Positions 4,357-17,111 of a stretch of DNA of 64,000 nt are shown here, in pieces. This DNA is from an uncultured delta proteobacterium. Lineage in GTDB: Bacteria; Desulfobacterota; BSN033; UBA1163. The notes beneath the pieces are model-generated. The model ran no database searches. It was not told the DNA's origin and worked only from the letters and a program-made list of their open reading frames with translations. The position numbers and the translations under genes were made by a program. How positions within the stretch are numbered: position 1 is the stretch's first letter; each line of letters begins with the position of its first letter. The stretch is from the NCBI GenBank assembly GCA_963708295.1, contig CAVPSJ010000015.1, forward strand, positions 192,001 to 256,000, given 5' to 3'.

Positions 4357-5766
4357 ATGATCCTTAGAATTTTTAACCAATATATACCCGCGCGCAAAAT
4401 TGCCTTCTTCTTCATGGAAAGTCTTTTCATCGGGGGGATGGTGATCCTTGGGGCCTACCTCCGTTTTATTGGCAACCCCGCAAGCTTCCATCAGTATGAA
4501 TATCTGATCCTGAAAGCCTTTTTGATTGTAGCCTGCGTTCAGTTTTCTCTCTATTACTTTGACCTCTATGACCTGAAAGCGTTTCGAAGCAATATCGAAC
4601 TGGGCATCCGTCTTCTCCAATCGCTCGGGCTCTCTTCCATTCTGTTAGCTTTTCTTTATTATCTGTTCCCCCTTTTGATCATCGGCCGGGGGATCTTTTT
4701 CATAAGCCTGGGCTTCATGGGTGTGGTGATTGTCTCGTGGAGAATGATCTACAACCATATTCTGAAAACAAGGCAATTTGACCAGAGGATTCTGATCATT
4801 GGTTCAGGGGCTTTGGCGAAGAGCATCTCAAAGGAGATCCTTGAAAGGGTGGATACGGGTTTCAAAATCATTGGATTTATCACCGATCATCCTGATGCAG
4901 CAGGGGCTGAGACGGTGGGGGAGAGATTGGTAAACCCAGCTATTATCGGTGATCCATCCCGGATCCTTGACATAGCCACGAAGGAGGGAGTGGACCGTAT
5001 TATTGTGGCCCTGGAGGAAAGAAGGGGAAAGTTCCCGGATGGCCAACTTTTAGAATGTAAGATGAGAGGGATTGCGATAGAGGAAGGAATCGGATTTTAT
5101 GAGCATCTCACGGGAAGGCTACAGGTGGAAAGCCTTCGTCCGAGTTTTCTCATCTTCTCCGATGGGTTTAAGAAATGGAAATTAACGATGTTGACAAAAA
5201 GAGTCACTGAATTCACTCTCTCCATGATCGGACTAACCCTCCTTTCCCCCTTCATTTTGGTCATCTCCATCTTGATCAAGATCGACTCCCGTGGCCCAGT
5301 TTTTTATAAACAAGAAAGGGTAGGGGAGAGGGGGAAGATATTCAAACTTCTAAAATTCAGGTCTATGATTGAAGGAGCCGAAGCCAATGGGCCGGTCTGG
5401 GCAGGAAAGAACGATGCTCGAGTTACCCGTGTCGGCCGATGGATCAGGAAATGGCGACTTGACGAAATCCCCCAGATGTTTAATGTGCTCAAAGGGGATA
5501 TGTCTTTTGTCGGCCCGAGGCCCGAGAGAGCCTATTTCATTGAAAAACTTCGAGAAGAGATTCCTTTTTACGATCAGCGCTTTTATGTAAAGCCGGGGAT
5601 CACGGGATTGGCACAGGTCAGATACCAGTATGGTGCATCTAAAGAAGATGCGTTGGAGAAACTCATGTATGATCTCTACTATATCAAAAACTTATCATCG
5701 CTATTTGATCTAGTCATCGTCTTCGAAACGATAAAAGTCGTGTTATCTGGGAAAGGGGCAAGGTAA
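4357..5766 (+). CDS. Priming sugar transferase, PEP-CTERM/XrtA-system type (TIGR03013-like)
   Basis: N-terminal TMs, KFRSM, RLDEIPQMFNVLKGDMSFVGPRPER, KPGITGLAQV, YDLYYIKN. Confidence 0.92.
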   Translation: MILRIFNQYIPARKIAFFFMESLFIGGMVILGAYLRFIGNPASFHQYEYLILKAFLIVACVQFSLYYFDLYDLKAFRSNIELGIRLLQSLGLSSILLAFLYYLFPLLIIGRGIFFISLGFMGVVIVSWRMIYNHILKTRQFDQRILIIGSGALAKSISKEILERVDTGFKIIGFITDHPDAAGAETVGERLVNPAIIGDPSRILDIATKEGVDRIIVALEERRGKFPDGQLLECKMRGIAIEEGIGFYEHLTGRLQVESLRPSFLIFSDGFKKWKLTMLTKRVTEFTLSMIGLTLLSPFILVISILIKIDSRGPVFYKQERVGERGKIFKLLKFRSMIEGAEANGPVWAGKNDARVTRVGRWIRKWRLDEIPQMFNVLKGDMSFVGPRPERAYFIEKLREEIPFYDQRFYVKPGITGLAQVRYQYGASKEDALEKLMYDLYYIKNLSSLFDLVIVFETIKVVLSGKGAR

Positions 5767-5770
5767 GTCA

Positions 5771-5957
5771 GGAGTTCATTGAGTTTGTTGTGTTCATTGT
5801 GTTCGTTGGGTTCAAGGAGCAGGTTTAAGGAGTTCATTGAGTTCATTGAGCTCGTTGGGTTAGCAGAGTCTTAAACCCAAGTAACTCAACTAACCCAAGC
5901 AACCCAATAAACCCAGGTAACCCAGTAACCCAATAAGCCCAACTAACCCAGCAACTT
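5771..5957. repeat. 9-mer repeat family A, G/T-rich block followed by its reverse complement
   Basis: GAGTTCATT/GTGTTCGTT units at 5771-5861, then AACCCAAGT/AACTCAACT units at 5874-5955. Confidence 0.9.
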
Positions 5958-6329
5958 ATGAAAATAACTCGGTTTGAAGATATCGATGCCTGGCAGGAGG
6001 CTCGAAAGCTGGTAAAGATGGTTTATGACGTGATTAAAACGAGTCCTAAATTCAGGAAAGATTTCCGATTGGTAAATCAGGTTCAAGACGCTGCGGTATC
6101 GGCTATGTCCAATATTGCTGAGGGATTTGCAAGGCGGAGTAATAGAGAGTTTGTCCAGTTTCTATTTATATCGAAAAGTTCAGCTGCCGAAGTTCAGAGT
6201 CAATTCTATGTGGCGTTAGATCAAGAATACGTCAACGAGGATGATTTTGAAAGGATTTATAATCAAGCTGAAATCGTTTCTAAACTGGATTCCGGTTTCA
6301 TCAAATATCTGAACTCGCAACCTAGATAA
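5958..6329 (+). CDS. Four helix bundle protein #1 (23S rRNA IVS protein / Avd-like family)
   Basis: [54 protein letters not shown]. Confidence 0.92.
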   Translation: MKITRFEDIDAWQEARKLVKMVYDVIKTSPKFRKDFRLVNQVQDAAVSAMSNIAEGFARRSNREFVQFLFISKSSAAEVQSQFYVALDQEYVNEDDFERIYNQAEIVSKLDSGFIKYLNSQPR

Positions 6330-6483
6330 CACGAGCGACTCAAGTAAAAGGGGTTCATTGGGTTCGTTGAGCCTGGTAGGTTTCTCGTGTTAAGTAACCC
6401 AAGTAACTCAATGAACTCAAGTAACCCAAGTAACCCAACAAACCCAAGTAACCCAACGAACCCAAGTAACTCAAGTAACGCAA
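6327..6483. repeat. Family A repeats downstream of FHB#1, running into the exosortase N-terminus
   Basis: GGGTTCATTGGGTTCGTTGA, then (AACCCAAGT)n. TAACACGAG/CTCGTGTTA inverted pair at 6327-6335 and 6384-6392. Confidence 0.9.
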
Positions 6484-7301
6484 TTCGAAGGGGGTTTTTG
6501 AAATCGGCTATTCTTGTTGCCTGTCTCCTCCTTCTCTATTTCCGTGTTTTGCAGGGATTGGTCTCTGATTGGCTCCATCTGCCGGATTTCTCCCATGGCT
6601 TTTTGATTCCGATTGTTTCCCTATATTTTGTTTATGAGAGGCGGAAACAACTCTCAGCCCTCAGCCGTTCCGGTAGCTGGACGGGCTTCGGGCTCTTACT
6701 CCTCGGGATCGTGCTCCTCCTATTTGGAAATCTTGCAAGCGAATACTTCACAATGAGATTTTCGATCTTAGTAGTCCTCGGGGGCATGGTTCTCTTTCTT
6801 TTAGGAAAGGAATGTTTTGGAAACCTTCTTTTCCCTATCGCCTTTTTGATTTTTATGATCCCCATCCCTTCCGTCCTCCTGGACCGGGTCACTTTTCCAA
6901 TGCAACTTTTCGCTTCCAAGGTGGCAGCGAAATCTCTTTACCTGATCGGCATCCCGGCACTGAGAGAGGGCAACGTTATTTTACTGGCAAACACTTCGTT
7001 AGAGGTGGCAGAGGCATGTTCGGGTATCCGGTCTTTGATCTCTTTGCTAGCGCTCTCCGTGGTGTTTGCTTATTTCAGCCAGAATTCAACGTGGAAGAGG
7101 ATTTTACTCGTTCTTTCAACGTTCCCCATCGCGATCATTGCCAATGCCGCACGTGTCACTGGGACCGGAATTCTTGCCCACCACTATGGCGATAAGGTCG
7201 CCCAGGGCTTCTTCCATGGCTTCTCGGGCTGGATTTTATTTGTGGTTGCGTTTATTTGTTTGTTTATTGTGGGAGGGTTGCTATCGAAAATGAAAAAGTG
7301 A
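6411..7301 (+). CDS. xrtA: Exosortase (EpsH/XrtA)
   Basis: DFSHGFLIP, FMIPIP, catalytic VAEACSGIRS, ANAARV, FFHGFSGW; multi-TM. Start is ATG 6411 or GTG 6387. Confidence 0.92.
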   Translation: MNSSNPSNPTNPSNPTNPSNSSNAIRRGFLKSAILVACLLLLYFRVLQGLVSDWLHLPDFSHGFLIPIVSLYFVYERRKQLSALSRSGSWTGFGLLLLGIVLLLFGNLASEYFTMRFSILVVLGGMVLFLLGKECFGNLLFPIAFLIFMIPIPSVLLDRVTFPMQLFASKVAAKSLYLIGIPALREGNVILLANTSLEVAEACSGIRSLISLLALSVVFAYFSQNSTWKRILLVLSTFPIAIIANAARVTGTGILAHHYGDKVAQGFFHGFSGWILFVVAFICLFIVGGLLSKMKK

Positions 7302-7502
7302 GCCAGTGCTGCAGTTCTGCAGTGCTGCTGTCAGGAGGTGCGAATGAAAATAGAGAGGTTCGAGGATATCCAAGGATGGCAAGAAGCACGATTGCTCACA
7401 AAGAAGATTTATGAACTTGCAAATAAGCTCCCCTTCAAGAGAGATAGGGGGCTTTGCAGCCAGATCCAACAAGCGTCGGTTTCCATCATGGCCAATATTG
7501 CT

Positions 7503-7792
7503 GGCTCCGCCCCGTAGGGAGTGGCTCTGAAATGTATTACGTTTACGCATTGCAAAGCGTTTTTAAGAAGCGAATCTATATAGGGCAAACAAAAGACCTG
7601 AATAAACGTTTGCAGTATCACAATAATGGGGCTGTAAAATCAACGTGTAAAGATAAGCCTTGGGAATTAATCGCTTTTCAAAAAGTTGAAAGCATAAGTG
7701 CAGCTAGGTGGATAGAAAGAGACCTAAAAAGGTCAAGAGGGAAAAGGATAAGATGGATTAAAGAAAAAAGTTTGTAGGCTACGCGCCGGAGG
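7503..7792 (+). mobile_element. GIY-YIG mini-element with 16 bp imperfect direct repeats
   Basis: GGCTCCGCCCCGTAGG (7503-7518) and GGCTACGCGCCGGAGG (7777-7792), each followed by GAG. Confidence 0.8.
7532..7777 (+). CDS. GIY-YIG nuclease family protein (81 aa)
   Basis: MYYVYALQS...IYIGQTKDLNKRLQYHNNG...ST...PWELI...E...AR.IERDLK. Confidence 0.9.
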   Translation: MYYVYALQSVFKKRIYIGQTKDLNKRLQYHNNGAVKSTCKDKPWELIAFQKVESISAARWIERDLKRSRGKRIRWIKEKSL

Positions 7793-7999
7793 GAGGGTTT
7801 TGATCGGCAATCCAAGAAGGAATTCAGTAGATTCTTATATTATGCGTCGGGGTCAGCCTCGGAAACTCAAAGTCATCTCTATGTAGCTTTGGATCAAAAG
7901 TATATCTCAGACGTGGATTTTCAGGAGACTTACAACCAGGCAAGGAAGACGAAGAGTCTGATCAACGGCTTTATTTTGTACTTAAAAGGTAAGAAGAAG

Positions 8000-8063
8000 T
8001 GACAGCAGCGCTGTAACACCGCAGTACTTTAAGAAACAGCAGCACCGCAGCACGGCAGCACAC
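8000..8063. repeat. 8-mer family B (CAGCACCG), inverted partner of 7305-7333
   Basis: TGACAGCAGCGCTGTA...CAGCAGCACCGCAGCACGGCAGCAC versus upstream GTGCTGCAGTTCTGCAGTGCTGCTGTCA. Confidence 0.85.
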
Positions 8064-8074
8064 TTAAACCTAAC

Positions 8075-8719
8075 ATGAATAGAAACTTAAAATTTGCCGC
8101 AGTCGTGATTATCCTTTTAGCTGCTGCGGCCCTGAATCACTATTTTTCCAAACCCGACATCTCGCTGCCTCGAAAGAGTCTGGCTGAATTTCCCATGGAG
8201 TTGGGCGATTGGACCACTCTAAGTGAGCAGAAAATAGAAGGCCGATCCATGGAGGTCCTTCAGGTTGACGACTACTTCATGAGATATTACAGCAATTCTG
8301 AAGGGAAGACCATCGGTCTCTATGTCGGTTATTTCAAATCCCAGAAGGAGGGGAAAGGAATCCACTCCCCAAGGCAGTGCCTGCCGGGTGCAGGTTGGGT
8401 TCCAGTCAATACTGAAGTCTATCAGATGAGCGCCCCCGGTCGTAATCTGAGGACAGTGCCGGTAAACAAGTTCGTCATGGGAAAAGGCCTGGACCGTCAG
8501 CTTTATCTCTTCTGGTATCAAGGCAGAGGTCGCGTCTATGCGAGCGAATACTGGAACAAGATTTACCTCATCTGGGATGGACTGACCAAGAAAAGGACCG
8601 ACGGCGCTCTGGTCAGAGTCAATAATCCCGTCATAGGAAATACCGAAGAAGCCCTCAAAACCCAATCCGACTTCATCCAGTTGTTTTTGCCGCTGCTTAA
8701 AGAGTATATTCCCGATTAA
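8075..8719 (+). CDS. epsI: Exosortase-associated EpsI family protein
   Basis: N-terminal TM, LYVGYFKSQ, IHSPRQCLPGAGW, FWYQGRGR, RTDGALVRV. Confidence 0.9.
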   Translation: MNRNLKFAAVVIILLAAAALNHYFSKPDISLPRKSLAEFPMELGDWTTLSEQKIEGRSMEVLQVDDYFMRYYSNSEGKTIGLYVGYFKSQKEGKGIHSPRQCLPGAGWVPVNTEVYQMSAPGRNLRTVPVNKFVMGKGLDRQLYLFWYQGRGRVYASEYWNKIYLIWDGLTKKRTDGALVRVNNPVIGNTEEALKTQSDFIQLFLPLLKEYIPD

Positions 8720-8740
8720 TAAATCAAACGATTGGGTATA

Positions 8741-9249
8741 GAGGACTGAGGGCCGCGGACTGAGGACTGAGTTAAAAATTATATGACTAATTAATGGGAG
8801 GGGTAAATTATGCCGACAGGGAGAATAGAGAAATTTGAGGATTTAATTGCTTGGCAAAAAGCCAGAGAACTGACCAAAAATGTTTACAGAGTTACTAAAA
8901 TTGGTGAATTCTTGAAGGATTTTGGACTTAGAGACCAGATTAGAAGAGCATCTGTTTCGATTATGTCAAATATCGCGGAAGGATTCGAACGAGGGGGACG
9001 CTCCGAATTTCATCAGTTCTTAGTGATCGCCAAGGGCTCCTGTGCAGAATTAAAATCTCAACTATATGTAGCGTTGGATGCTGAATTCATAGACATAGGA
9101 ACCTTCCAAAGTTTAGATGGCTTGGCAAGAGAAACAAGTCGACTTGTTGGTGGATTGCGTGCCGCAGTTTATAGGCAAAAGATGAAAACAAAATAGCTAT
9201 TAACCTCAGTCCTCATCGCTCAGTCCTCAGTACTCGGTCCACAGTCCTA
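8741..9249. repeat. 7-mer family C (GACTGAG upstream / CTCAGTC downstream) bracketing FHB#3
   Basis: TGAGGACTGAGTTAA at 8761-8775 versus TTAACCTCAGTCCTCA at 9200-9215, with further units out to 9249. Confidence 0.88.
8810..9196 (+). CDS. Four helix bundle protein #3
   Basis: [61 protein letters not shown]. Confidence 0.95.
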
Positions 9250-9259
9250 AGCAAAAAGG

Positions 9260-10456
9260 ATGTTCAGAACCCTACCCCCGACAGCGGCCCCTCTCCAATT
9301 CCAGGATCTTTTATCCGGGGTATTTTCGACTTTGGTCGACCACGGAGCCGAGTCCGGATTGAAGGGGCAAATCCAGGAATATTTCAAGGTGAAGCATGTA
9401 TTTCTCATTTCTTCCGGGAAGGCAGCGCTCTATCTCTCATTAAGAGCAATGCAGCAATCCTCTAAAAGGAAGGAGGTAATCATCCCGGCTTACTCGAGCT
9501 TTTGCCTGGCCTCTGCAGTCGCCCGCACAGGTCTGCCGGTTAAGTTATGTGATATTGATCCGGAAACGCTTGATTTTGATTTGGCTAAGCTGAAATCGAT
9601 GATCACTGAAGAAACCTTGGCCGTTATTCCGGTCCACAACTATGGTCTGGTCTGCAATATGAAGGAGATTCAGGAGATCGCCCTGGGAAAAGGCGCTTAT
9701 GTGCTTGAGGATGCAGCCCAGGCAGCAGGCGCCCAGCTCGGAAAGCGCAAGGCCGGTACGATCGGAGATATCGGCATCCTCAGCCTGGGACGGGGTAAGA
9801 ATATCTGTGCCCTGGGAGGAGGGGTTATTCTTACTGACCGAGAACCACTGGCGTTCCTGATCGACGAATTGCTGGACCTCTACCCGCGAGAACGTTCCTT
9901 CCCGGAATGTTCAAGTATGTTGACGGGCATGGGGCTGAGTCTTTTTCTTGATCCGGAAAGGTATGCTGTTCCTGCTCATCTGTCTTTTTTGAACCTTGGC
10001 GCCAACGTTTTCGACCCGGATTTTAGAATTGCCGGACTTTCGAACGTGAATGCGGAAGTAGGACGACGTGCCTTTTTATCCCTTGATCCATACAATGAAA
10101 TTCGCATACGGAATGCCCGCCTCCTCGACCATAACCTTTGCCAGAATGAGTCGCTGAGAATTCCGAAGCCCCTTGTTGGCGGACAGCCTGTTTACCTGAG
10201 GTTTCCGATTGTATTTCCGGAAAAAGAGGTGCGTCGCCGTGTGTTCTGGATACTAAGGCGGAGGCGGCTTGGAGCAAGCCGTAGCTACCCGGCCCCGCTA
10301 AACGAGATTCCCGCTTTTAGAAGATATCTTTGCGTTGAGGAGGATTATCCCGGAGCAAAGTTTGTCGCGGATAGAATCCTCACGCTGCCGACGCATCCTT
10401 ACGTGAACGAGGATGATCTCCAAAAAATAGTATCAAAAATTGACAGAATAACATGA
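9260..10456 (+). CDS. DegT/DnrJ/EryC1/StrS-family PLP aminotransferase
   Basis: SSGKAAL, VLEDAAQA, SLGRGKN, ILTLPTHP. Confidence 0.88.
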   Translation: MFRTLPPTAAPLQFQDLLSGVFSTLVDHGAESGLKGQIQEYFKVKHVFLISSGKAALYLSLRAMQQSSKRKEVIIPAYSSFCLASAVARTGLPVKLCDIDPETLDFDLAKLKSMITEETLAVIPVHNYGLVCNMKEIQEIALGKGAYVLEDAAQAAGAQLGKRKAGTIGDIGILSLGRGKNICALGGGVILTDREPLAFLIDELLDLYPRERSFPECSSMLTGMGLSLFLDPERYAVPAHLSFLNLGANVFDPDFRIAGLSNVNAEVGRRAFLSLDPYNEIRIRNARLLDHNLCQNESLRIPKPLVGGQPVYLRFPIVFPEKEVRRRVFWILRRRRLGASRSYPAPLNEIPAFRRYLCVEEDYPGAKFVADRILTLPTHPYVNEDDLQKIVSKIDRIT

Positions 10457-10679
10457 ACTGGGTTTATTGAGTTCCAAATAACAGCAGCACCGCAGCACTA
10501 TTAATGGGTTACTTGGGTTTGTTGAGTTCATTGAGTTTATCGGGTTCAAAACTCATAAGTCAAGACTTGAAGTTAGTAACTCATTAACTCACTTGCTTAT
10601 TTTCTTTTGCCTCATTCCAACAGCAGCACCGCAGCACTTTTAAACAACTCAAAACTCATAACTCACCATTCAAAATTCC
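10457..10679. repeat. Composite intergenic repeat tract (families A, B, F, G)
   Basis: GGGTTACTTGGGTTTGTTGAGTTCATTGAGTT, CAGCAGCACCGCAGCAC x2, AACTCAAAACTCATAACTC. Confidence 0.85.
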
Positions 10680-11798
10680 ATGTTAAATATATTAACCATC
10701 GACCTCGAAGATTACTTCCAGGTTCACGCTTTTTCAAGGGTCATCAGATATGAAGACTGGGACAAATTCGAATGCCGCATCGAACGCAACACCGACCGCC
10801 TCCTCGAAATTCTTAACGGTTCGCCAATAAATGACCGCAGCACAGCAGCACTTCATAACCCATTAACTCATTCACTCAATAACCCATCACGTGAGGTTTC
10901 AGAACCGCAGCGCTGCAGCACTTCATCACCCAATAACTCAATAACTCATTCACTCAATACCTCATTAACTCAAAGGGGCAAGGCGACTTTCTTTGTTTTG
11001 GGCTGGATCGCCGAACGATATCCTGATCTGGTTCGAAGGATTCAAAAAGAAGGTCATGAGATCGCCTGCCATGGTTACGCACACCAGCTTGTCTACACTC
11101 AATCCAGAGACGAATTCAGACAGGACGTCAGGAGAGCCAAATCTATTCTTGAAGATATCACAGGCAAAGAGGTCATCGGTTATCGTGCACCGACTTACTC
11201 CATAACAAATAAGTCAAAGTGGGCTTTTGACGTTCTGGTCGAAGAAGGATTCAAATATGACTCCAGCATCTTCCCGATTCGGCACGATTTCTACGGTATG
11301 CCTGAAGCCCCAAGGTTTCCTTTCGTCGTTTCCTTGAACGGAAACGACAATGTTGAGTTTTCAGTTTTGAATTTTGAATTTAATACTGCATCACTTAATA
11401 ACTCATTAACTCATTCACTTATTAACCCATCATCTGACATTTCAGCACCGCAGCACCGCAGCACCGCAGCACATTATTCAATTATTGAATTTCCCCTTTC
11501 CACCGTGAAACTCTTCGGCGGCAATTTCCCCGTCTCCGGAGGCGGCTACTTCAGGCTGTTCCCCTATTCACTGATAAGAAAGGGTCTCAAAAGCATTAAC
11601 GAGAAGGAAGGGAAGCCATTTATATTTTACATGCATCCCTGGGAGATTGATTTTGAGCAACCAAGAATCAAGGGTGTTTCTCCGAGATCAAAATTCCGTC
11701 ACTACGTCAACCTCAATAAAACTGGATTTAGGCTCAAGAGACTCCTATCCGATTTCCAATTCTCAAATATTCGGCAGCTCTTAACTCAAAATGCATAA
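10680..11798 (+). CDS. Polysaccharide deacetylase, PEP-CTERM locus type (TIGR03006-like), with two repeat-derived insertions
   Basis: [53 protein letters not shown]. Confidence 0.92.
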
Positions 11799-11799
11799 C

Positions 11800-11955
11800 C
11801 TCCTTAATAAAATTTGAATTTTAAGTGTTGAATGTTGAATTAACTCAAAACTCAAAATTGGTGGTTTATTTTGTTATTAAGAAACCGCAGCACCGCATCA
11901 CTGCTTCATCGGTCATTCAAAGCTGGCAACTCAAAATTCACACTTCATAACTTCT
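11800..11955. repeat. 7-mer family F (TTTTGAA/TTCAAAA) inverted tract plus family B
   Basis: TTTGAATTTTAAGTGTTGAATGTTGAATT followed by AACTCAAAACTCAAAATT; CCGCAGCACCGCATCAC. Confidence 0.8.
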
Positions 11956-11967
11956 TTTAAGCATAGG

Positions 11968-11996
11968 TTGACATTTCGTTTTAGGAAGTGTACACT
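11968..11996 (+). promoter_or_regulatory. sigma70 promoter of TA pair 1 with palindromic candidate operator
   Basis: TTGACA-N17-TACACT; the AAGTGTACACTT palindrome overlaps the -10. Confidence 0.75.
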
Positions 11997-12026
11997 TATT
12001 TGAAAAGCGTCATGTGAGGGCTGGCC

Positions 12027-12260
12027 ATGGAAATAAATGCAAAGCAGGCAAGAGCGAAACTGAGCTCCCTTCTCAAAAGGGTGGAAGAGGGCGGTGAGGT
12101 GGTAGTTCTTCGCCGCGGTAAAAGAATTGCTCGCCTGGTACCCGCCGGGAAGAAACAGGCAAGGCTACCCACCTTGAAGGAATTCCGGGCCTCGATCCGG
12201 ATCAAAGGGGAACCGTTGAGCACGGGTGTCATAAGGGGCAGACAGAGGGAGCGTTTCTAA
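12027..12260 (+). CDS. Phd/YefM-family antitoxin
   Basis: INAKQARAKLSSLLKRVEEGGEVVVLRRGKRIARLVP. Confidence 0.9.
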   Translation: MEINAKQARAKLSSLLKRVEEGGEVVVLRRGKRIARLVPAGKKQARLPTLKEFRASIRIKGEPLSTGVIRGRQRERF

Positions 12261-12682
12261 TGGTTTATGTCGATACAAGCGTGTTAGTCGCCTATTATTG
12301 CCCCGAACGCCTGAGCGAGAAAGCTGAGGAGCTGCTTACAAGTTATCTTAGGCCTGCGATCAGTTCTCTAACAGAGGTTGAATTATTCTCGGCTGTCTCA
12401 GGAAAAGTCCGAAGGAAGGAAATCAATCTAAAAGATGCCGGTCGGGTGACAGCGAGGTTTTTGGCCCATAGGGATGCTGATCACTATACGTATATTCCAG
12501 TTGAGGGACACCATTATCGTCTGGCAAGGGATTGGATTGGAATGTTTAAAATGGAGCTCCGAACTCTCGATGCAATTCATCTGGCAGTGGCCTCGTCAGA
12601 AGGACTGACTCTCCTAACATCGGATAAGGGACTCTTCAAATCAGCGAGCGCCCTGGCGCAGGACGCCATCCTGCTGGAATAG
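12260..12682 (+). CDS. vapC: VapC-family PIN toxin
   Basis: VYVDTSVLV, E.FSA, LRTLDAIHLA, LLTSDKGL; translationally coupled (TAATG). Confidence 0.9.
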   Translation: MVYVDTSVLVAYYCPERLSEKAEELLTSYLRPAISSLTEVELFSAVSGKVRRKEINLKDAGRVTARFLAHRDADHYTYIPVEGHHYRLARDWIGMFKMELRTLDAIHLAVASSEGLTLLTSDKGLFKSASALAQDAILLE

Positions 12683-12697
12683 ATTCTGGCCGCATCC

Positions 12698-12945
12698 ACA
12701 ATTCAAAATTCATAACTCAAAATTGATAAATTGTTAGCTCATTCACTCAATAGCTCAAGGAACCCAAGTTACCCAACGAACCCAATAACCCGATAAACTC
12801 AAAAACACAGCAACACAGCAGGACTCATTAACTCAATGACCTCATAACTCATTATCTCATTCAAAATTCAAACCTGGTAACTTAAAAACTCAATAACTTA
12901 TTCTTATAAGTACCGCAGCACATAGTAACTCATTCCCTCATCTCC
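12698..12945. repeat. C/A-rich composite repeat tract between the TA pairs (families F, G, A, B)
   Basis: TTCAAAATTCATAACTCAAAATT, AACCCAAGTTACCCAACGAACCCAATAACCCGATAAACTC, ACCGCAGCAC. Confidence 0.85.
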
Positions 12946-12968
12946 TTATGAACGATCTGAACATTCCC

Positions 12969-12997
12969 TTGACAATCTGCCTTGAGTGGTGTACACT
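12969..12997 (+). promoter_or_regulatory. sigma70 promoter of TA pair 2 (probably near-leaderless mRNA)
   Basis: TTGACA-N17-TACACT, GTGTACAC palindrome, ATG at 13007. Confidence 0.72.
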
Positions 12998-13006
12998 GTG
13001 ACTACA

Positions 13007-13306
13007 ATGAAGGTGAATATCAGAAAAGCCAGAGAGAACTTCTCGGAGATCATCAACCGAGTCACCGCAAAAGGGGAGAGAGTTATCCTGACCTCAAGAG
13101 ATAAGCCCAAGGCAGCCATCGTGAGTCTCAAAGATGCAGCGGCCATAGGAGACAAGTCCATGAGGAAGGCAAAAAGGCTCCATCAGCTGGAAAAAATCAG
13201 GAAGATGAGACAGAAACTGGCTCGAAAGAGATTAACGGACGATTCACTGGAGGCATTGGGAAAGATCAGAGAGGAAAGGGTTGAAGAACGATCAAGTGGC
13301 GGTTGA
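13007..13306 (+). CDS. Phd/YefM-family antitoxin
   Basis: VNIRKARENFSEIINRV...ERVILTSRDKPKAAIVS. Confidence 0.88.
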   Translation: MKVNIRKARENFSEIINRVTAKGERVILTSRDKPKAAIVSLKDAAAIGDKSMRKAKRLHQLEKIRKMRQKLARKRLTDDSLEALGKIREERVEERSSGG

Positions 13307-13706
13307 TGCCAGTTTTCTTTTGAAAATGTTTCTTCCCGAGAACAAGAGTGATCAAGCAGAAGAACTCTGGAGGGCTTGGGTTGGAGATCATGTAGAAATC
13401 GTTGCCCCTACCCTTATTATATTTGAAGTGTCTTCTGTCATAAGGAACAAGGTTTTTAGGGGTATGTTGACCGAGAGAGAGGGTAGAGAATTGATAAGTA
13501 TGCTGAGACAACTTGACATTTCATTAGTCTATGATGAGGAGCTCTTGGACATAGCATGGGAAATCGGGACCATCCTTAATAGCCCGAATCTATACGACTG
13601 TTTCTATCTTGCCCTGCCGAAACTGCTAAGGATACCTCTTTGGACAACGGATAAGAAACTATTCCAATCCGCCCAAAAAGAATTTGCATTTGTAAATCTA
13701 TTGTAG
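13281..13706 (+). CDS. vapC: VapC-family PIN toxin
   Basis: VAVDASFLLK, APTLIIFEV, LYDCFYLAL, LWTTDKKL. Confidence 0.88.
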   Translation: MKNDQVAVDASFLLKMFLPENKSDQAEELWRAWVGDHVEIVAPTLIIFEVSSVIRNKVFRGMLTEREGRELISMLRQLDISLVYDEELLDIAWEIGTILNSPNLYDCFYLALPKLLRIPLWTTDKKLFQSAQKEFAFVNLL

Positions 13707-13795
13707 GCCGACCTCACGCATTGCAACACCAATCACCCAAGTAACCCAATAAACTCAAATGACAGCATCACCGCAGTACTTATTAACTTAGGATT

Positions 13796-14896
13796 ATGGC
13801 CACAATCAGATTCTATCAAGATCTTGATAAAGAGCGATGGGATTCTTACGTTTTGAACCATCCCGACGGAACCTTTTTCCACCTCATCGGCTGGAAAGCA
13901 GTCATTGAAAAGACGTTTCGTCACAGATCCTATTATCTCATTGCTGAAAGCAGCGGCAGCTCAAACAACCCAAGTAACCCAAGTAACCCAAGCAACCCAA
14001 GTAACTCAAATAACCCAAGCAACCCGATTGTCGGGATCCTTCCACTTTTTTCCGTCAAGAGCTTTCTTTTCTGCAAATCTCTCGTTTCCGTTCCTTTCGC
14101 TGCCTATGGAGGGATCCTGGCTGATAACCCACAAGCTGCGGGTCAACTCTTCGATAAAGCCAAGGAAATAACCCGCTCCGAAGGGTTAGATTATCTTGAA
14201 CTCAGGAGTAAGGTCGGAGGGATTGATCTTCTACCCCAGAAAGAGCTCTATGTACTCTTCCGAAGAGAAATATTTGAAGACCTTGAATCCAATATGAATG
14301 CGATTCCGAGAAAGTCTCGAAGGATGATACGAGTCGGAGAGAAAGCGGGGTTGAGTTATACGTTCGGCCGTGAAGAATTACTTCCTGAATTTTATGATAT
14401 CCTTGCCAGAAGTTACCATCGACTCGGCAGCCCGGTCTTTTCAATTGAACTATTCGAAAACTTATTGGAACAATTGAAGGAGCAAGCCAACATTTTGCTT
14501 GTCAAGAATCGAGAAGGCAAGTCCATATCCAGCGTGTTGACTTTTTTTTACAAAGATCAAGTCCTTCCTTATTATGCCGGCTCCCTCCTTGAATACAGAG
14601 ATCTGGCTCCAAATGACTATATGTACTGGCAATTGATGCGATATGGATATGAAAATGGCTGCAAGTTATTTGACTTTGGAAGAAGCAAAGTGGATACAGG
14701 ATCGTACGACTTCAAGAGGCATTGGGGCTTTGAGCCAGAGCCTTTACCTTATCAATATTTCTTGAACCGGATGAATGAAATCCCAAACCTCAGCCCGGCA
14801 AACCCGAAATATCAGAAAAAGATCGAGATCTGGCGGAAACTGCCGTTTCTGGCTACTAGAATCATTGGACCTCATATTGTCAAATATATTCCGTAA
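13796..14896 (+). CDS. FemAB-related protein, PEP-CTERM system type (TIGR03019-like), with SNP-repeat insertion
   Basis: TFFHL.GW, LVSVPFAAYGG, PYYAG, FDFGRSK.DTG, FKRHWGF, NPKY. Confidence 0.92.
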   Translation: MATIRFYQDLDKERWDSYVLNHPDGTFFHLIGWKAVIEKTFRHRSYYLIAESSGSSNNPSNPSNPSNPSNSNNPSNPIVGILPLFSVKSFLFCKSLVSVPFAAYGGILADNPQAAGQLFDKAKEITRSEGLDYLELRSKVGGIDLLPQKELYVLFRREIFEDLESNMNAIPRKSRRMIRVGEKAGLSYTFGREELLPEFYDILARSYHRLGSPVFSIELFENLLEQLKEQANILLVKNREGKSISSVLTFFYKDQVLPYYAGSLLEYRDLAPNDYMYWQLMRYGYENGCKLFDFGRSKVDTGSYDFKRHWGFEPEPLPYQYFLNRMNEIPNLSPANPKYQKKIEIWRKLPFLATRIIGPHIVKYIP

Positions 14897-14912
14897 CAAT
14901 ACTTAAGGGAGG

Positions 14913-15437
14913 AGGTGTGAGGTTGGAGGCAAAAGATAATAATCATAAGGTTGCTGCAGGTTCCATGAGAATAAGCGATAAATTTGTATTCCCATTTGAG
15001 AAACTTGAGGTGTGGCAGATGTCAGTTGATTTAGCGGAGAAGGTTCTCGATCTTCTTGAAGGAGTACCTCAAAATAAGCACATTCGTTTAGTTGGTCAAA
15101 TTGAGTCGGCAGTAACTTCTTCAGCGCAGAACATAGCTGAGGGTAGAGGCAGACAATACAAGAAGGAGTTTATCCAATTCTTACATATAGCCCAAGGGTC
15201 CATCTTTGAGGTAGTAACATTGAATGAGATCTTTCGGAGAAGGGCAATCTTTGCAGCTGAGGATACGAATGAGGTCAGATTTCGCTGCGAGCAGATTGAT
15301 CGTAAGTTAAACGGTTTAATTAACTCTCTTCGTGGTAATAAGCGCAAAAAGCCTGTAGGATTCGCCTGATACGTTTCGAATTATGCCTCAGACGGGTATA
15401 GTTGCCTTCGGCCTCAAATGAAGTGGTCCTCACACCT
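14913..15437. repeat. Family D inverted repeats bracketing FHB#4
   Basis: AGGTGTGAGG (14913-14922) / CCTCACACCT (15428-15437); inner GAGGCA / TGCCTC pair. Confidence 0.7.
14965..15369 (+). CDS. Four helix bundle protein #4
   Basis: FPFEKLEVWQ, QIESAVTSSAQNIAEGRGR, KEFIQFLHIAQGSIFEVVT. Start is ATG 14965 or GTG 14917. Confidence 0.92.
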   Translation: MRISDKFVFPFEKLEVWQMSVDLAEKVLDLLEGVPQNKHIRLVGQIESAVTSSAQNIAEGRGRQYKKEFIQFLHIAQGSIFEVVTLNEIFRRRAIFAAEDTNEVRFRCEQIDRKLNGLINSLRGNKRKKPVGFA

Positions 15438-15447
15438 ACAACGGTGT

Positions 15448-15643
15448 GGCAGCAAGCAACCAGCACCCGGCAACCAGAATCGAGTATCCAGTTTCTTGCT
15501 TCTGGTTTCTGGTTTCTTGATCTCCGATTCTAACCAGTAACGAGCAACTAGAAACTAGCAACTAGAAACGAGCAGCAAGCAACCAGCATCCAGCAACCAG
15601 ACAGCCAGAAACCAGCAACCAGAACCAGCAACCAGCAACCAGA
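15448..15643. repeat. 7-mer family E (CAGCAAC/CAGAAAC) with an internal inverted block
   Basis: GTTTCTTGCTTCTGGTTTCTGGTTTC, then (CCAGCAA/CTAGAAA)n directly up to the ATG at 15644. Confidence 0.9.
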
Positions 15644-17111
15644 ATGAAGATTTTATACATCGCCCACCGTATTCCTTATCCTCCGAACAAGGGGGATAAG
15701 ATTCGGTCTTTTAATGAAATAAAGTACCTTTCCCAAAAGCATGAAATTCATCTTACCTGTTTAGCAGACGATCCCAAGGACCTAAAATATGAAGAGGAAT
15801 TAAAAAAATATTGTAAAGCGGTCAGGGTTGTTCTTATCAATCCCCAATTGGCGAAGTTGAAAAGTATCTTTTATCTATTGACCAAGCAACCATTGACCAT
15901 CCCTTATTTCTATTCATCAAAGCTCCAACAGACTGTTGACCAATTGCTATCGACCAATGACTACGATGCAATATTTTGCTTTTCATCTCCCATGGCTGAG
16001 TATGTCTTTAGATCCAGGTTGCTTGTTTCTAGTTTCTTGCAGCTTGATGAATACCGGCAACCAGCGACCAGCGGCCAGCAACCAAAAATCAGTAACTAGA
16101 AACGAGCGACTGGAAACAAGTGACCAGCAACCGGAAACCAGCAACCGGAAACCAGCATCCAGCAACCAGCAACCAAGATTAATCATGGACTTTGTCGACG
16201 TCGATTCAGACAAGTGGGCACAATACTCGAAATATGCACGGTTTCCAATGTCCTGGATCTATGCATTGGAAGGCCGAAGGTTGGCTGATTATGAAAGGAA
16301 CGTTGCGGAGACCTTTGATCATTCGATTTTTGTAACGGAAGCAGAGGTGAAAATATTTAAGGGTAAAAATCCCCATATCCAAAACGTTTCCGTTATCTCC
16401 AACGGCGTTGATCTTGACTACTTTTCCCCCAATTATCTTCACCAGGAATCAACTATCGACCAACGACCATCGGCAAATGAACGAGGTTCTTCGACTATCA
16501 ACCAACATCCAGCAACCATCAACCAGCCTCCGGAAACGAGCAACAAGCAACAAGCACCCAGCACCCAGCCTCCAGAATCAAGCAACCAGCAACCAGTTAT
16601 CGTTTTCACCGGCGCCATGGACTACTATGCCAACATAGACGGAGTGGTCTGGTTTGCAAAAGAAATTTTGCCTTTGATTAAGAAAGAAATCCCTGAAATA
16701 CAGTTTTTCATTGTTGGCAGCAACCCAACGAAAGAAGTTCTCTCTTTGTCTTCAAACAATGGTGTTACGGTAACAGGGTATGTCCCCGATACCAGGGAAT
16801 ATTTAAGTAAGGCGACGGTTGTCGTTGTCCCATTAAGAATAGCCAGAGGCATTCAGAACAAGATCCTTGAAGCCATGGCTATGGGTTTGCCTGTGGTCGC
16901 CACTCCGCAGGCATTTGAAGGAATTGATGCCCGGCCCAAGAGAGATCTGATCTTGGAAGAAAATACAGAGAAGTTTGGGGAGAGTGTAGTTCAACTCATA
17001 AGGAACATCTATCTGAGGAAATGCCTTGGTGATAATGCAAGAAAAGCTGTCGAAGACAACTACAGCTGGGTGAAGAACTTGGGCAAGTTAGACGAAGTCA
17101 TGTCACCTTAG
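15644..17111 (+). CDS. GT4 glycosyltransferase, PEP-CTERM/EpsH1-associated (TIGR03087-like); frameshift inside a repeat insertion
   Basis: AHRIPYPPNKGDKIRS, DFVDVDSDKW, FTGAMDYYANIDGV, ARGIQNKILEAMA. Confidence 0.9.

Follow-up and report, generated by a model that had tools for sequence, protein, structure and literature searches.

Intervening sequences (IVSs) of bacterial 23S ribosomal RNA (rRNA), described in Coxiella and Leptospira, can carry a gene of the PF05635 family in the loop of a helix formed by their terminal inverted repeats. The Coxiella IVS is reported to be 428 nucleotides (nt) long, to lie in helix 45 and to be closed by a 28-bp terminal stem within which RNase III cuts; it contains the S23p open reading frame (ORF), whose product is apparently not made in vivo, and older proposals cited in the same paper regard IVSs as transposition remnants or as mobile elements with an ORF that aids mobility (Warrier et al. 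2016, PMC4990558). Here we describe four PF05635/TIGR02436 genes, all on the + strand, in a 64,000-nt stretch of DNA from an uncultured delta proteobacterium (hereinafter the window, G000:C15:192001-256000; genome G000 comprises 4.95 Mb in 20 contigs and is 91% complete). Three of these four-helix-bundle (FHB) genes, designated FHB1-3, are each enclosed by inverted tandem arrays that can form such a helix, and the finding, real for three of the four window genes, extends far beyond the window. We consider it probable that FHB1-3 are IVS-like cassettes of operon spacers that move as arm-gene-arm units.

Short repeats around small genes have other precedents. In REPIN-RAYT (REPtron) systems, RAYT standing for REP-associated tyrosine transposase, a small gene is flanked by an inverted short repeat, the repeat is scattered as hairpin doublets and each gene lineage has its own repeat. 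Heptamer repeats of cyanobacteria go by the name STRR. The GGGAATC arrays of Xanthomonas are mostly intergenic tandem heptamers, with 70-75 convergent pairs able to form stem-loops (Rehm et al. 2015, PMC4692102), and TAACTGA direct repeats upstream of genes have been described in the context of Beggiatoaceae and Nostoc heptamers (MacGregor 2015, PMC4679880). The arrays described below resemble those of Xanthomonas, Nostoc and Beggiatoaceae in being tandem heptamers and mostly intergenic, whereas the main texts of the two papers do not mention the PF05635 family, genes between pairs possibly being listed in their supplementary tables. The FHB family is itself homologous, in fold and family, to Avd, the accessory protein of diversity-generating retroelements (PMC10053308); the present loci differ from these in that no RVT_1 or reverse transcriptase match was found in the 91%-complete genome and no template or variable repeats were seen. 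A search of open texts, with subscription journals and supplements outside it, found no literature link of PF05635 genes to flanking tandem-repeat arms and no paper joining rRNA intervening sequences and heptamer repeats.

Inverted arrays around the window genes

The four genes were identified by ORF listing and by Pfam and NCBIfam scans. FHB1, FHB3 and FHB4 score 92-120 bits against PF05635 and the N-terminal half of FHB2 scores 50 bits (cut-off 33.8), while TIGR02436 scores of 94-108 bits (cut-off 24) likewise place them in the family; the solved structure nearest to FHB3 is 2gsc_A, XCC0516. A repeat search and Tandem Repeats Finder (TRF) located a tandem array of 7-9 nt units upstream of each of FHB1-3 and a reverse-complement array downstream. 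These arms come close to the start codon on one side and, on the other, reach into the stop codon or border it. The genes and arms, together with the FHB4 stem and the hairpin in the spacer after it, are as follows.

5774-5861, + strand: outer 5' arm of FHB1, a G/T-rich 9-nt tandem array with unit GTTCATTGn (TRF)
5874-5955, + strand: C-rich 9-nt array AACCCAAGT, immediately 5' of FHB1, in a local hairpin with 5774-5816
5958-6329, + strand: FHB1, PF05635/TIGR02436 gene (Pfam E 1.8e-31; NCBIfam TIGR02436)
6351-6369, + strand: short GGGTTCATT array, 3' of FHB1
6392-6483, + strand: outer 3' arm of FHB1, AAGTAACCC array, covering the first 32 codons of the longest ORF of the exosortase gene xrtA
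7304-7333, + strand: 5' arm of FHB2, CAGTGCTG units, ending 10 nt ahead of the ATG at 7344
7338-8002, + strand: FHB2, PF05635 gene split in two (N half to 7501, C half from 7793)
7502-7792, + strand: GIY-YIG mini-element in FHB2, with its ORF at 7535-7777 (PF01541 E 1.2e-13)
8000-8061, + strand: 3' arm of FHB2, GCAGCACC units in two blocks (8000-8028 and 8036-8061), the stop codon being the first triplet
8741-8776, + strand: 5' arm of FHB3, GAGGACT units (repeats, TRF, folding)
8810-9196, + strand: FHB3, PF05635/TIGR02436 gene (Pfam E 7e-35; TIGR02436)
9200-9248, + strand: 3' arm of FHB3, CCTCAGT units, beginning 4 nt past the stop codon
14913-14922, + strand: 5' half of the FHB4 stem, a 10-bp perfect stem, not tandem and not above chance
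14965-15369, + strand: FHB4, PF05635 gene; the ORF is open from 14917 and the ATG at 14965 fits the domain start
15428-15437, + strand: 3' half of the FHB4 stem, partner of 14913-14922
15491-15642, + strand: hairpin without a gene, made of inverted heptamer arrays (GTTTCTG followed by AACCAGC), in the spacer that follows FHB4

The long arms pair over 5774-5819 and 6407-6452 at FHB1 (46 nt, 74%), over 7306-7331 and 8036-8061 as well as 7305-7333 and 8000-8028 at FHB2, and over 8730-8776 and 9200-9246 at FHB3; the outer 5' arm of FHB1 pairs locally with 5870-5912 in addition to its distant partner. An initial annotation of this DNA had drawn shorter stems, which at FHB1-3 are cores of these longer arms. 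Its FHB2 stem (7318-7333 with 8000-8015) pairs at all 16 positions, 14 of them Watson-Crick and two G-U on the + strand, and the 3' half starts with the TGA stop; its FHB3 stem joins 8761-8775 to the same word at 9200-9215, where one extra G forms the bulge; and the two halves at FHB4 pair at 10 of 10 positions. These pairings stand as drawn. The accompanying statement that each FHB gene sits in its own stem holds for FHB1-3 and is too strong as a whole, because the FHB4 stem is not significant.

Chance complementarity was gauged on a crude gene set of 5777 non-overlapping ORFs of G000, with a score for local gapped complementarity between the 135 nt around the start and around the stop of each ORF. 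For control ORFs of 60-300 aa (n = 3962) the median is 19.5 and the 99th percentile 33, compared with scores, at correct gene boundaries, of 46 for FHB1, 38.5 for FHB2 and 46 for FHB3. Across the genome, 10 of the 12 PF05635 loci (13 profile matches) score 38.5-61, above the control 99th percentile, and one scores 30.5; in an RNAduplex matrix, the locus's own upstream/downstream pair is the best of its row in 11 of the 12. Among 600 control ORFs of 90-200 aa from G000, a 16-bp run of Watson-Crick and G-U pairs between the flanks occurs in 0.67%, and Watson-Crick runs of at least 10 and at least 12 occur in 2.5% and 0.8%, respectively; FHB1 and FHB3 have runs of 13. The stems of FHB1-3 are far beyond chance, including that of FHB1, which the initial annotation did not list. 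The FHB4 stem is present, lacks tandem units and is not distinguishable from chance, its score of 25.5 being matched or beaten by 8.8% of the 3962 controls.

Folding of the cassette RNAs agrees with the arm pairings. The FHB3 cassette is closed by a helix of ~30-40 bp in both the minimum free energy and the centroid structure (z = -4.36). The arms also close FHB2 in both structures, through 7306-7331 and 8036-8061 and not through the 3' half that the initial annotation had chosen; with the GIY-YIG insert included, the overall z is -1.06. An Rfam scan of 5000-17000 returned nothing relevant, just one sub-threshold CRISPR-DR6 match.

The GIY-YIG mini-element of ~290 nt splits FHB2 within its most conserved motif, NIAEG. 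Both halves are matched by PF05635 (C15:199362-199505 and 199790-199969), with a Pfam match for the N half as well. In contigs from four wetland metagenome runs, 7501 is joined to 7793 with one letter between, indicating that an uninterrupted in-frame FHB2 allele exists in nature. Contig joints that skip FHB1 (5794 to 6431, 5803 to 6422 and 5814 to 6414) were considered as empty sites and not used, their sides being 21-32 nt long and lying inside the repeat arrays. Free-standing GIY-YIG-like ORFs of 97-98 aa, named by eye from translations, are found elsewhere in the genome (G000:C19:36035-36325 on the - strand and C13:194861-195154 on the + strand), each flanked by its own non-tandem inverted repeat.

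Cassettes and hairpins across sites and genomes

PF05635 matches are present in 38 of 41 related genomes. From 150 listed of 271 matches, 80 loci away from contig ends were chosen, spread over genomes and with 500-nt flanks, and one was dropped for a short flank; the null consisted of mismatched upstream/downstream pairs (n = 400 for the relatives) and has a heavy tail, with several loci sharing a unit. Of the resulting 79 loci, 53 exceed the 95th percentile of this null, 19 the 99th and two its maximum, and alignments show that the tandem units vary from locus to locus. A wide set, drawn from one genome per species by a pattern scan with a five-row alignment, comprises the best 80 of at least 591 relatives and leans to FHB3-like proteins. 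Short flanks or N led to the exclusion of six loci; of the remaining 74, 56 exceed the 95th percentile, 30 the 99th and 14 the maximum; the labels include Nitrospirota, Chloroflexota, Planctomycetota, Acidobacteriota, Bacteroidota, Cyanobacteria, Gemmatimonadota, Brocadia and others. One locus, L123 (contig label Burkholderiales), combines a 62%-identical protein with arms that hardly differ from those of FHB3.

Plasmids carry the cassettes too. A tblastn search of plasmids gave 29 records, mostly cyanobacterial, and the two Nostoc plasmid genes inspected both have GGGGAAA/TTTCCCC arms in the same anatomy. One of the two is at 96451-96828 of NZ_CP046706.1, plasmid pNsp_c of Nostoc sp. ATCC 53789. 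On plasmid pNsp_b of Nostoc sp. ATCC 53789 (L236), the PF05635 gene is interrupted at 843-1125 by a ~280-nt hairpin element that has no ORF and whose arms are like the gene's own, and the locus is annotated as two four-helix-bundle coding sequences. This interruption shows that hairpins of this type are able to insert into DNA.

In blastn against the G000 rRNA operon, not one of the 162 fetched loci proved to lie in rRNA, and no PF05635 match falls in the 23S gene of this genome (C8:287926-290970). The initial annotation had likened the inserts to 23S IVSs. The likeness of shape is upheld, in that complementary ends close a stem around an ORF at FHB1-3 (not at FHB4), and the likeness of location is not: the window loci lie between protein-coding genes and not in an rRNA helix. 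The cassettes further differ from 23S IVSs in that they occupy intercistronic spacers of protein-coding gene strings and in that their arms are tandem arrays of 6-9 nt units, polar and clade-specific.

To compare orthologous spacers, we searched 14 congeners with the DNA of two G000 loci and inspected the spacers. Site 1 (G000:C12) lies between an upstream gene and an acyl-CoA-dehydrogenase-like gene and holds a PF05635 gene in G000 only, among the fetched genomes. All eight relatives fetched have instead a gene-less hairpin of inverted arrays in a spacer of 60-144 nt, built from four different units, none of which is the unit flanking the G000 gene; homology ends just past the upstream stop codon and returns at the ribosome-binding site. 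Site 2 (G000:C4), between two ABC-ATPase-like genes, is occupied by hairpin, gene and hairpin in G000, G006 and G009, by the hairpin alone in G013 and G014, by one arm in G012 and by other units in G008 and G011, and it is a bare 64-nt spacer in G010, G003, G004 and G005. The same spacer in G001 (L099, G001:C52:6110-6540) contains two nested hairpins, the outer with GCATAG/CTATGC and the inner with GGGTT/AACCC arms. This variation at both sites suggests that the intercistronic spacer is a slot where hairpins, with or without a gene, come and go. The C12 and C4 loci of G000 also contain dispersed repeats of ~130-200 nt (L087 462-594 and L086 177-390) that resemble transposable elements of the miniature inverted-repeat type (MITEs) and recur, at 75-98% identity, in dozens of places across G000 and its congeners.

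The arm unit follows the protein. On a tree of 80 protein sequences (11 having been dropped for internal stops or length), the arm-unit labels change 21 times, compared with an average of 33.5 in 200 shuffles, not one of which reaches so low a number. As judged by tblastx of the outer flanks, the same clade and unit recur at non-homologous sites (five for GTGTCCG, five for GCGCAnAG, six for AAGGrTTC and five for GGAGTCA), among them two or three paralogues of genome G004; when such sites are compared, stretches of 15-39 nt of the arm units share 85-100% identity and the proteins 61-93%, in local alignments that flatter the arms. The arms are also polar. In stems scoring at least 24, the upstream arm has more G than C in 45 and more C than G in three of the relatives' loci, with five ties, and the corresponding numbers in the wide set are 46, six and four, so that the pooled count of stems with a G-rich upstream arm is 91 versus nine. 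Several families have a 3' array that opens with the stop codon and a 5' array that reaches the ribosome-binding region. The comparison shows that gene and arms have been inherited and relocated together among intercistronic spacers over evolutionary time. A second proposal of the initial annotation, that the stems are the ends of an inserted unit, is supported by a unit that tracks the protein clade and recurs at non-homologous sites and by a gene present or absent at orthologous spacers.

Throughout G000, TRF found arrays with at least three copies at period 7 (n = 349), period 8 (n = 120), period 6 (n = 81) and period 9 (n = 46). Merging left 785 arrays, 447 of them mostly outside crude ORFs, and the window region has the highest array density in the genome. 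The 736 array pairs within 3 kb include 94 inverted and 43 direct ones; among the inverted pairs, 57 have loops shorter than 200 nt and are plain hairpins, and 12 have loops of 350-700 nt. Like the heptamer hairpins of the Xanthomonas type, the arrays form convergent pairs of ~7-nt tandem units in spacers. A PF05635 gene lies within eight rows (seven loci) of the 37 inverted pairs with loops of at least 200 nt; this architecture also occurs outside the family, which is nevertheless enormously enriched in it. Judged by eye from their translations, two of the other ORFs so bracketed resemble triose-phosphate isomerase and RNase HII. A unit family is shared with an FHB-flanking array by 135 of the 785 arrays, of which 22 adjoin an FHB gene. 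The density of arrays with at least 3.5 copies is 4.3, 2.1 and 0 per 100 kb in three FHB-free genomes and 20.9, 0, 8.0, 5.3 and 9.3 per 100 kb in five FHB-bearing genomes, the ranges overlapping in these small samples of 46-140 kb from eight genomes.

Transcription, protein and gene neighbourhood

The window cassettes appear to be co-oriented inside a string of exosortase and polysaccharide genes, of which the neighbours of the FHB genes are:

6387-7301: exosortase gene (xrtA)
8075-8719: DUF3485/EpsI-like gene
9260-10456: DegT-type aminotransferase gene
13796-14896: FemAB-like gene

No sigma-70-like site was found on the + strand upstream of FHB1-3, and FHB2 and FHB3 are probably transcribed with their arms because the gap between arm and start codon is too short to hold a separate promoter. 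Neighbours are co-oriented with the PF05635 gene at 55 of 64 upstream and 51 of 63 downstream positions in the relatives and at 40 of 61 and 38 of 62 in the wide set, compared with a baseline of 70.9% for adjacent crude genes. If both arms are transcribed together, the helix must form, and the transcribed arms would enclose the cistron by a helix 16 to ~40 bp long. Since this topology is that of the ORF-bearing 23S IVS excised by RNase III, cleavage by the host enzyme, for which G000 has one gene, would by analogy be the likely fate of the arms and a likely consequence for the host transcript; the first proposal of the initial annotation was likewise that the inserts may be looped out or cleaved from the polycistronic mRNA.

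The ratio of nonsynonymous to synonymous substitution rates (dN/dS) is 0.05-0.20 in all eight computable orthologous pairs, four of 12 pairs being dS-saturated. The FHB protein is under purifying selection, which suggests that it is made and functionally important, in contrast to Coxiella S23p, seemingly not made in vivo (PMC4990558). A PADLOC scan for defence families gave no match.

In the longest xrtA ORF, the exosortase domain does not start until residue 45. The EpsI-like protein is matched in just three of 40 relatives, at 28-37% identity, and the xrtA-epsI site has no orthologue for comparison. C/A-rich tandem arrays stand in frame in long ORFs at 6392-6483, where the array covers the start of the longest xrtA ORF, and at 10856-10973, 11399-11491, 13967-14025, 16053-16175 and 16499-16596; they read as NPSNPS- or QQPATSN-like low-complexity stretches. 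Amid the polysaccharide genes, 12027-12682 and 12986-13706 each hold a pair of short adjacent ORFs with arrays on either side, candidate antitoxin/PIN-type toxin pairs by eye only. Elsewhere in the genome, the small ORFs G000:C15:117408-117776 (- strand) and C16:131286-131675 (+ strand) are flanked by CCCCTT..AAGGGGAGG palindromes that recur nearby.

Competing explanations and meaning

In the reading that we hold probable, a cassette would consist of a G-rich array of 7-9 nt tandem units, a PF05635 gene and a reverse-complement C-rich array, and gene-less hairpins with the same kind of arms would fill the same kind of slot. Several results weigh against it. FHB4 falls within chance, and 26 of the 79 relatives' loci and 18 of the 74 wide-set loci lie within the null. 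The arm-unit labels come from hand-made motif lists drawn from the arms themselves and cover 39 of 91 loci, the other 52 being unlabelled. In G000, 650 of the 785 arrays belong to unit families without an FHB gene, and the inverted pairs with long loops that lack a PF05635 gene enclose ordinary ORFs of 60-819 aa. As to a mover, no transposase was detected in or beside the window cassettes by ORF listing and Pfam, no target-site duplication is readable at the two orthologous sites, where the whole spacer differs, and recombination or horizontal transfer could have moved the cassettes. The 12 PF05635 genes of G000 all fall in different clades, implying that movement is old or rare; the near-identical copies within one genome that mark a MITE or a terminal-inverted-repeat transposon are not seen. 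Finally, sense-type wobbles (GT+TG) number 104 and antisense-type mismatches (AC+CA) 90, which is no excess (44 versus 47 in the relatives, 60 versus 43 in the wide set), and in a test of locus-specific compensation in five unit families a locus's own arms were best or joint best in five of 24 rows, with similar means. The G-U-biased or compensatory substitutions predicted by the initial annotation did not materialize, which is one half of what that annotation had named as refuting it, and we see no sign of selection on the RNA helix as such, over and above the effect of inverted DNA repeats.

An alternative that we regard as unlikely, though worth keeping in view, puts host hairpins first: the inverted heptamer arrays would be ordinary intercistronic stem-loops, such as mRNA stabilisers resembling repetitive extragenic palindromes, or terminators, growing by slippage, and FHB genes would land or survive in their loops. 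The 57 gene-less inverted pairs with short loops, the retention of a hairpin at orthologous spacers while its unit changes, the 650 arrays from families without an FHB gene, the occurrence of arrays in FHB-free genomes and the convergent heptamer arrays known in Xanthomonas (PMC4692102) all fit this picture, which leaves unexplained why the unit tracks the protein clade at non-homologous sites and across phyla and why the arms are polar relative to the gene by 91 to nine; moreover, at the C12 site none of the eight relatives has the unit that flanks the G000 gene. Lower still do we rate the view that the FHB protein binds the tandem units as putative operators, with a unit specific to each clade, in the service of autoregulation or element propagation, and that the helix is secondary. 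Clade-specific units conserved at least as well as the protein, strict arm polarity, purifying selection on the protein and its homology to Avd (PMC10053308) speak for such binding, but binding needs no complementarity between the two arms, and array density does not clearly track FHB number in the small samples of 46-140 kb.

Movement in trans of a DNA-level hairpin element by a tyrosine (Y1) transposase, in the REPIN-RAYT fashion, seems very improbable. The arms do behave like DNA inverted repeats in showing no wobble bias, hairpins are nested in the G001 spacer, an ORF-less hairpin lies inside the Nostoc plasmid gene and G000 has nine Y1_Tnp matches. The loci also resemble REPIN-RAYT systems in having a small gene between inverted short-repeat copies, a repeat particular to each gene lineage and, perhaps, copies of that repeat dispersed as spacer hairpins. 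However, the flanked gene is PF05635 and not a Y1 (RAYT) transposase, and its four-helix-bundle product has neither a nuclease nor a transposase fold; tandem arrays make up the arms, the majority of arrays in G000 lack a partner gene, and no unit family has a single-copy master gene. Each of the Y1 genes carries terminal repeats of its own that are not heptamers, and apart from a single unrelated array close to one of them they do not adjoin the arrays. A REPIN-RAYT-like scheme with one repeat per gene finds no support, and the Y1 transposases were rejected as cassette movers. Chance complementarity within low-complexity spacers, which would suit FHB4 alone, with its score reached by 8.8% of controls, can be dismissed with near certainty: it is already refuted for FHB1-3 by the control ORFs, and loci elsewhere also exceed their null. 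As a separate observation on the Y1 genes, seven Y1_Tnp ORFs of ~315-336 aa in G000 (C4:1008237, C20:73743, C14:290260, C12:89045, C6:70371, C16:103276 and C5:149287) form three groups, each with its own terminal inverted repeats, e.g. GGGGACGTTGGTT...AACCAACGTCCCC.

A broader extension of the cassette reading can be offered only tentatively. PF05635 cassettes might be phylum-spanning autonomous hairpin elements, with 23S IVSs as their rRNA-lodged minority, the protein as a sequence-specific arm-binding factor and the abundant gene-less heptamer hairpins found in many bacteria as non-autonomous offspring; the FHB protein would then serve its element much as Avd serves retroelements. For annotation, array-encoded 'NPSNPS' N-termini and linkers may be element DNA. 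PF05635 is a large and widespread family named after its rRNA context, where none of the 162 loci examined lies, and the constant anatomy of G-rich arm, gene and C-rich mirror arm, with the unit tied to the clade, gives the family a testable biology. It may also explain where ORF-bearing rRNA intervening sequences, and some of the heptamer repeats in cyanobacteria, xanthomonads and sulfur bacteria, come from.

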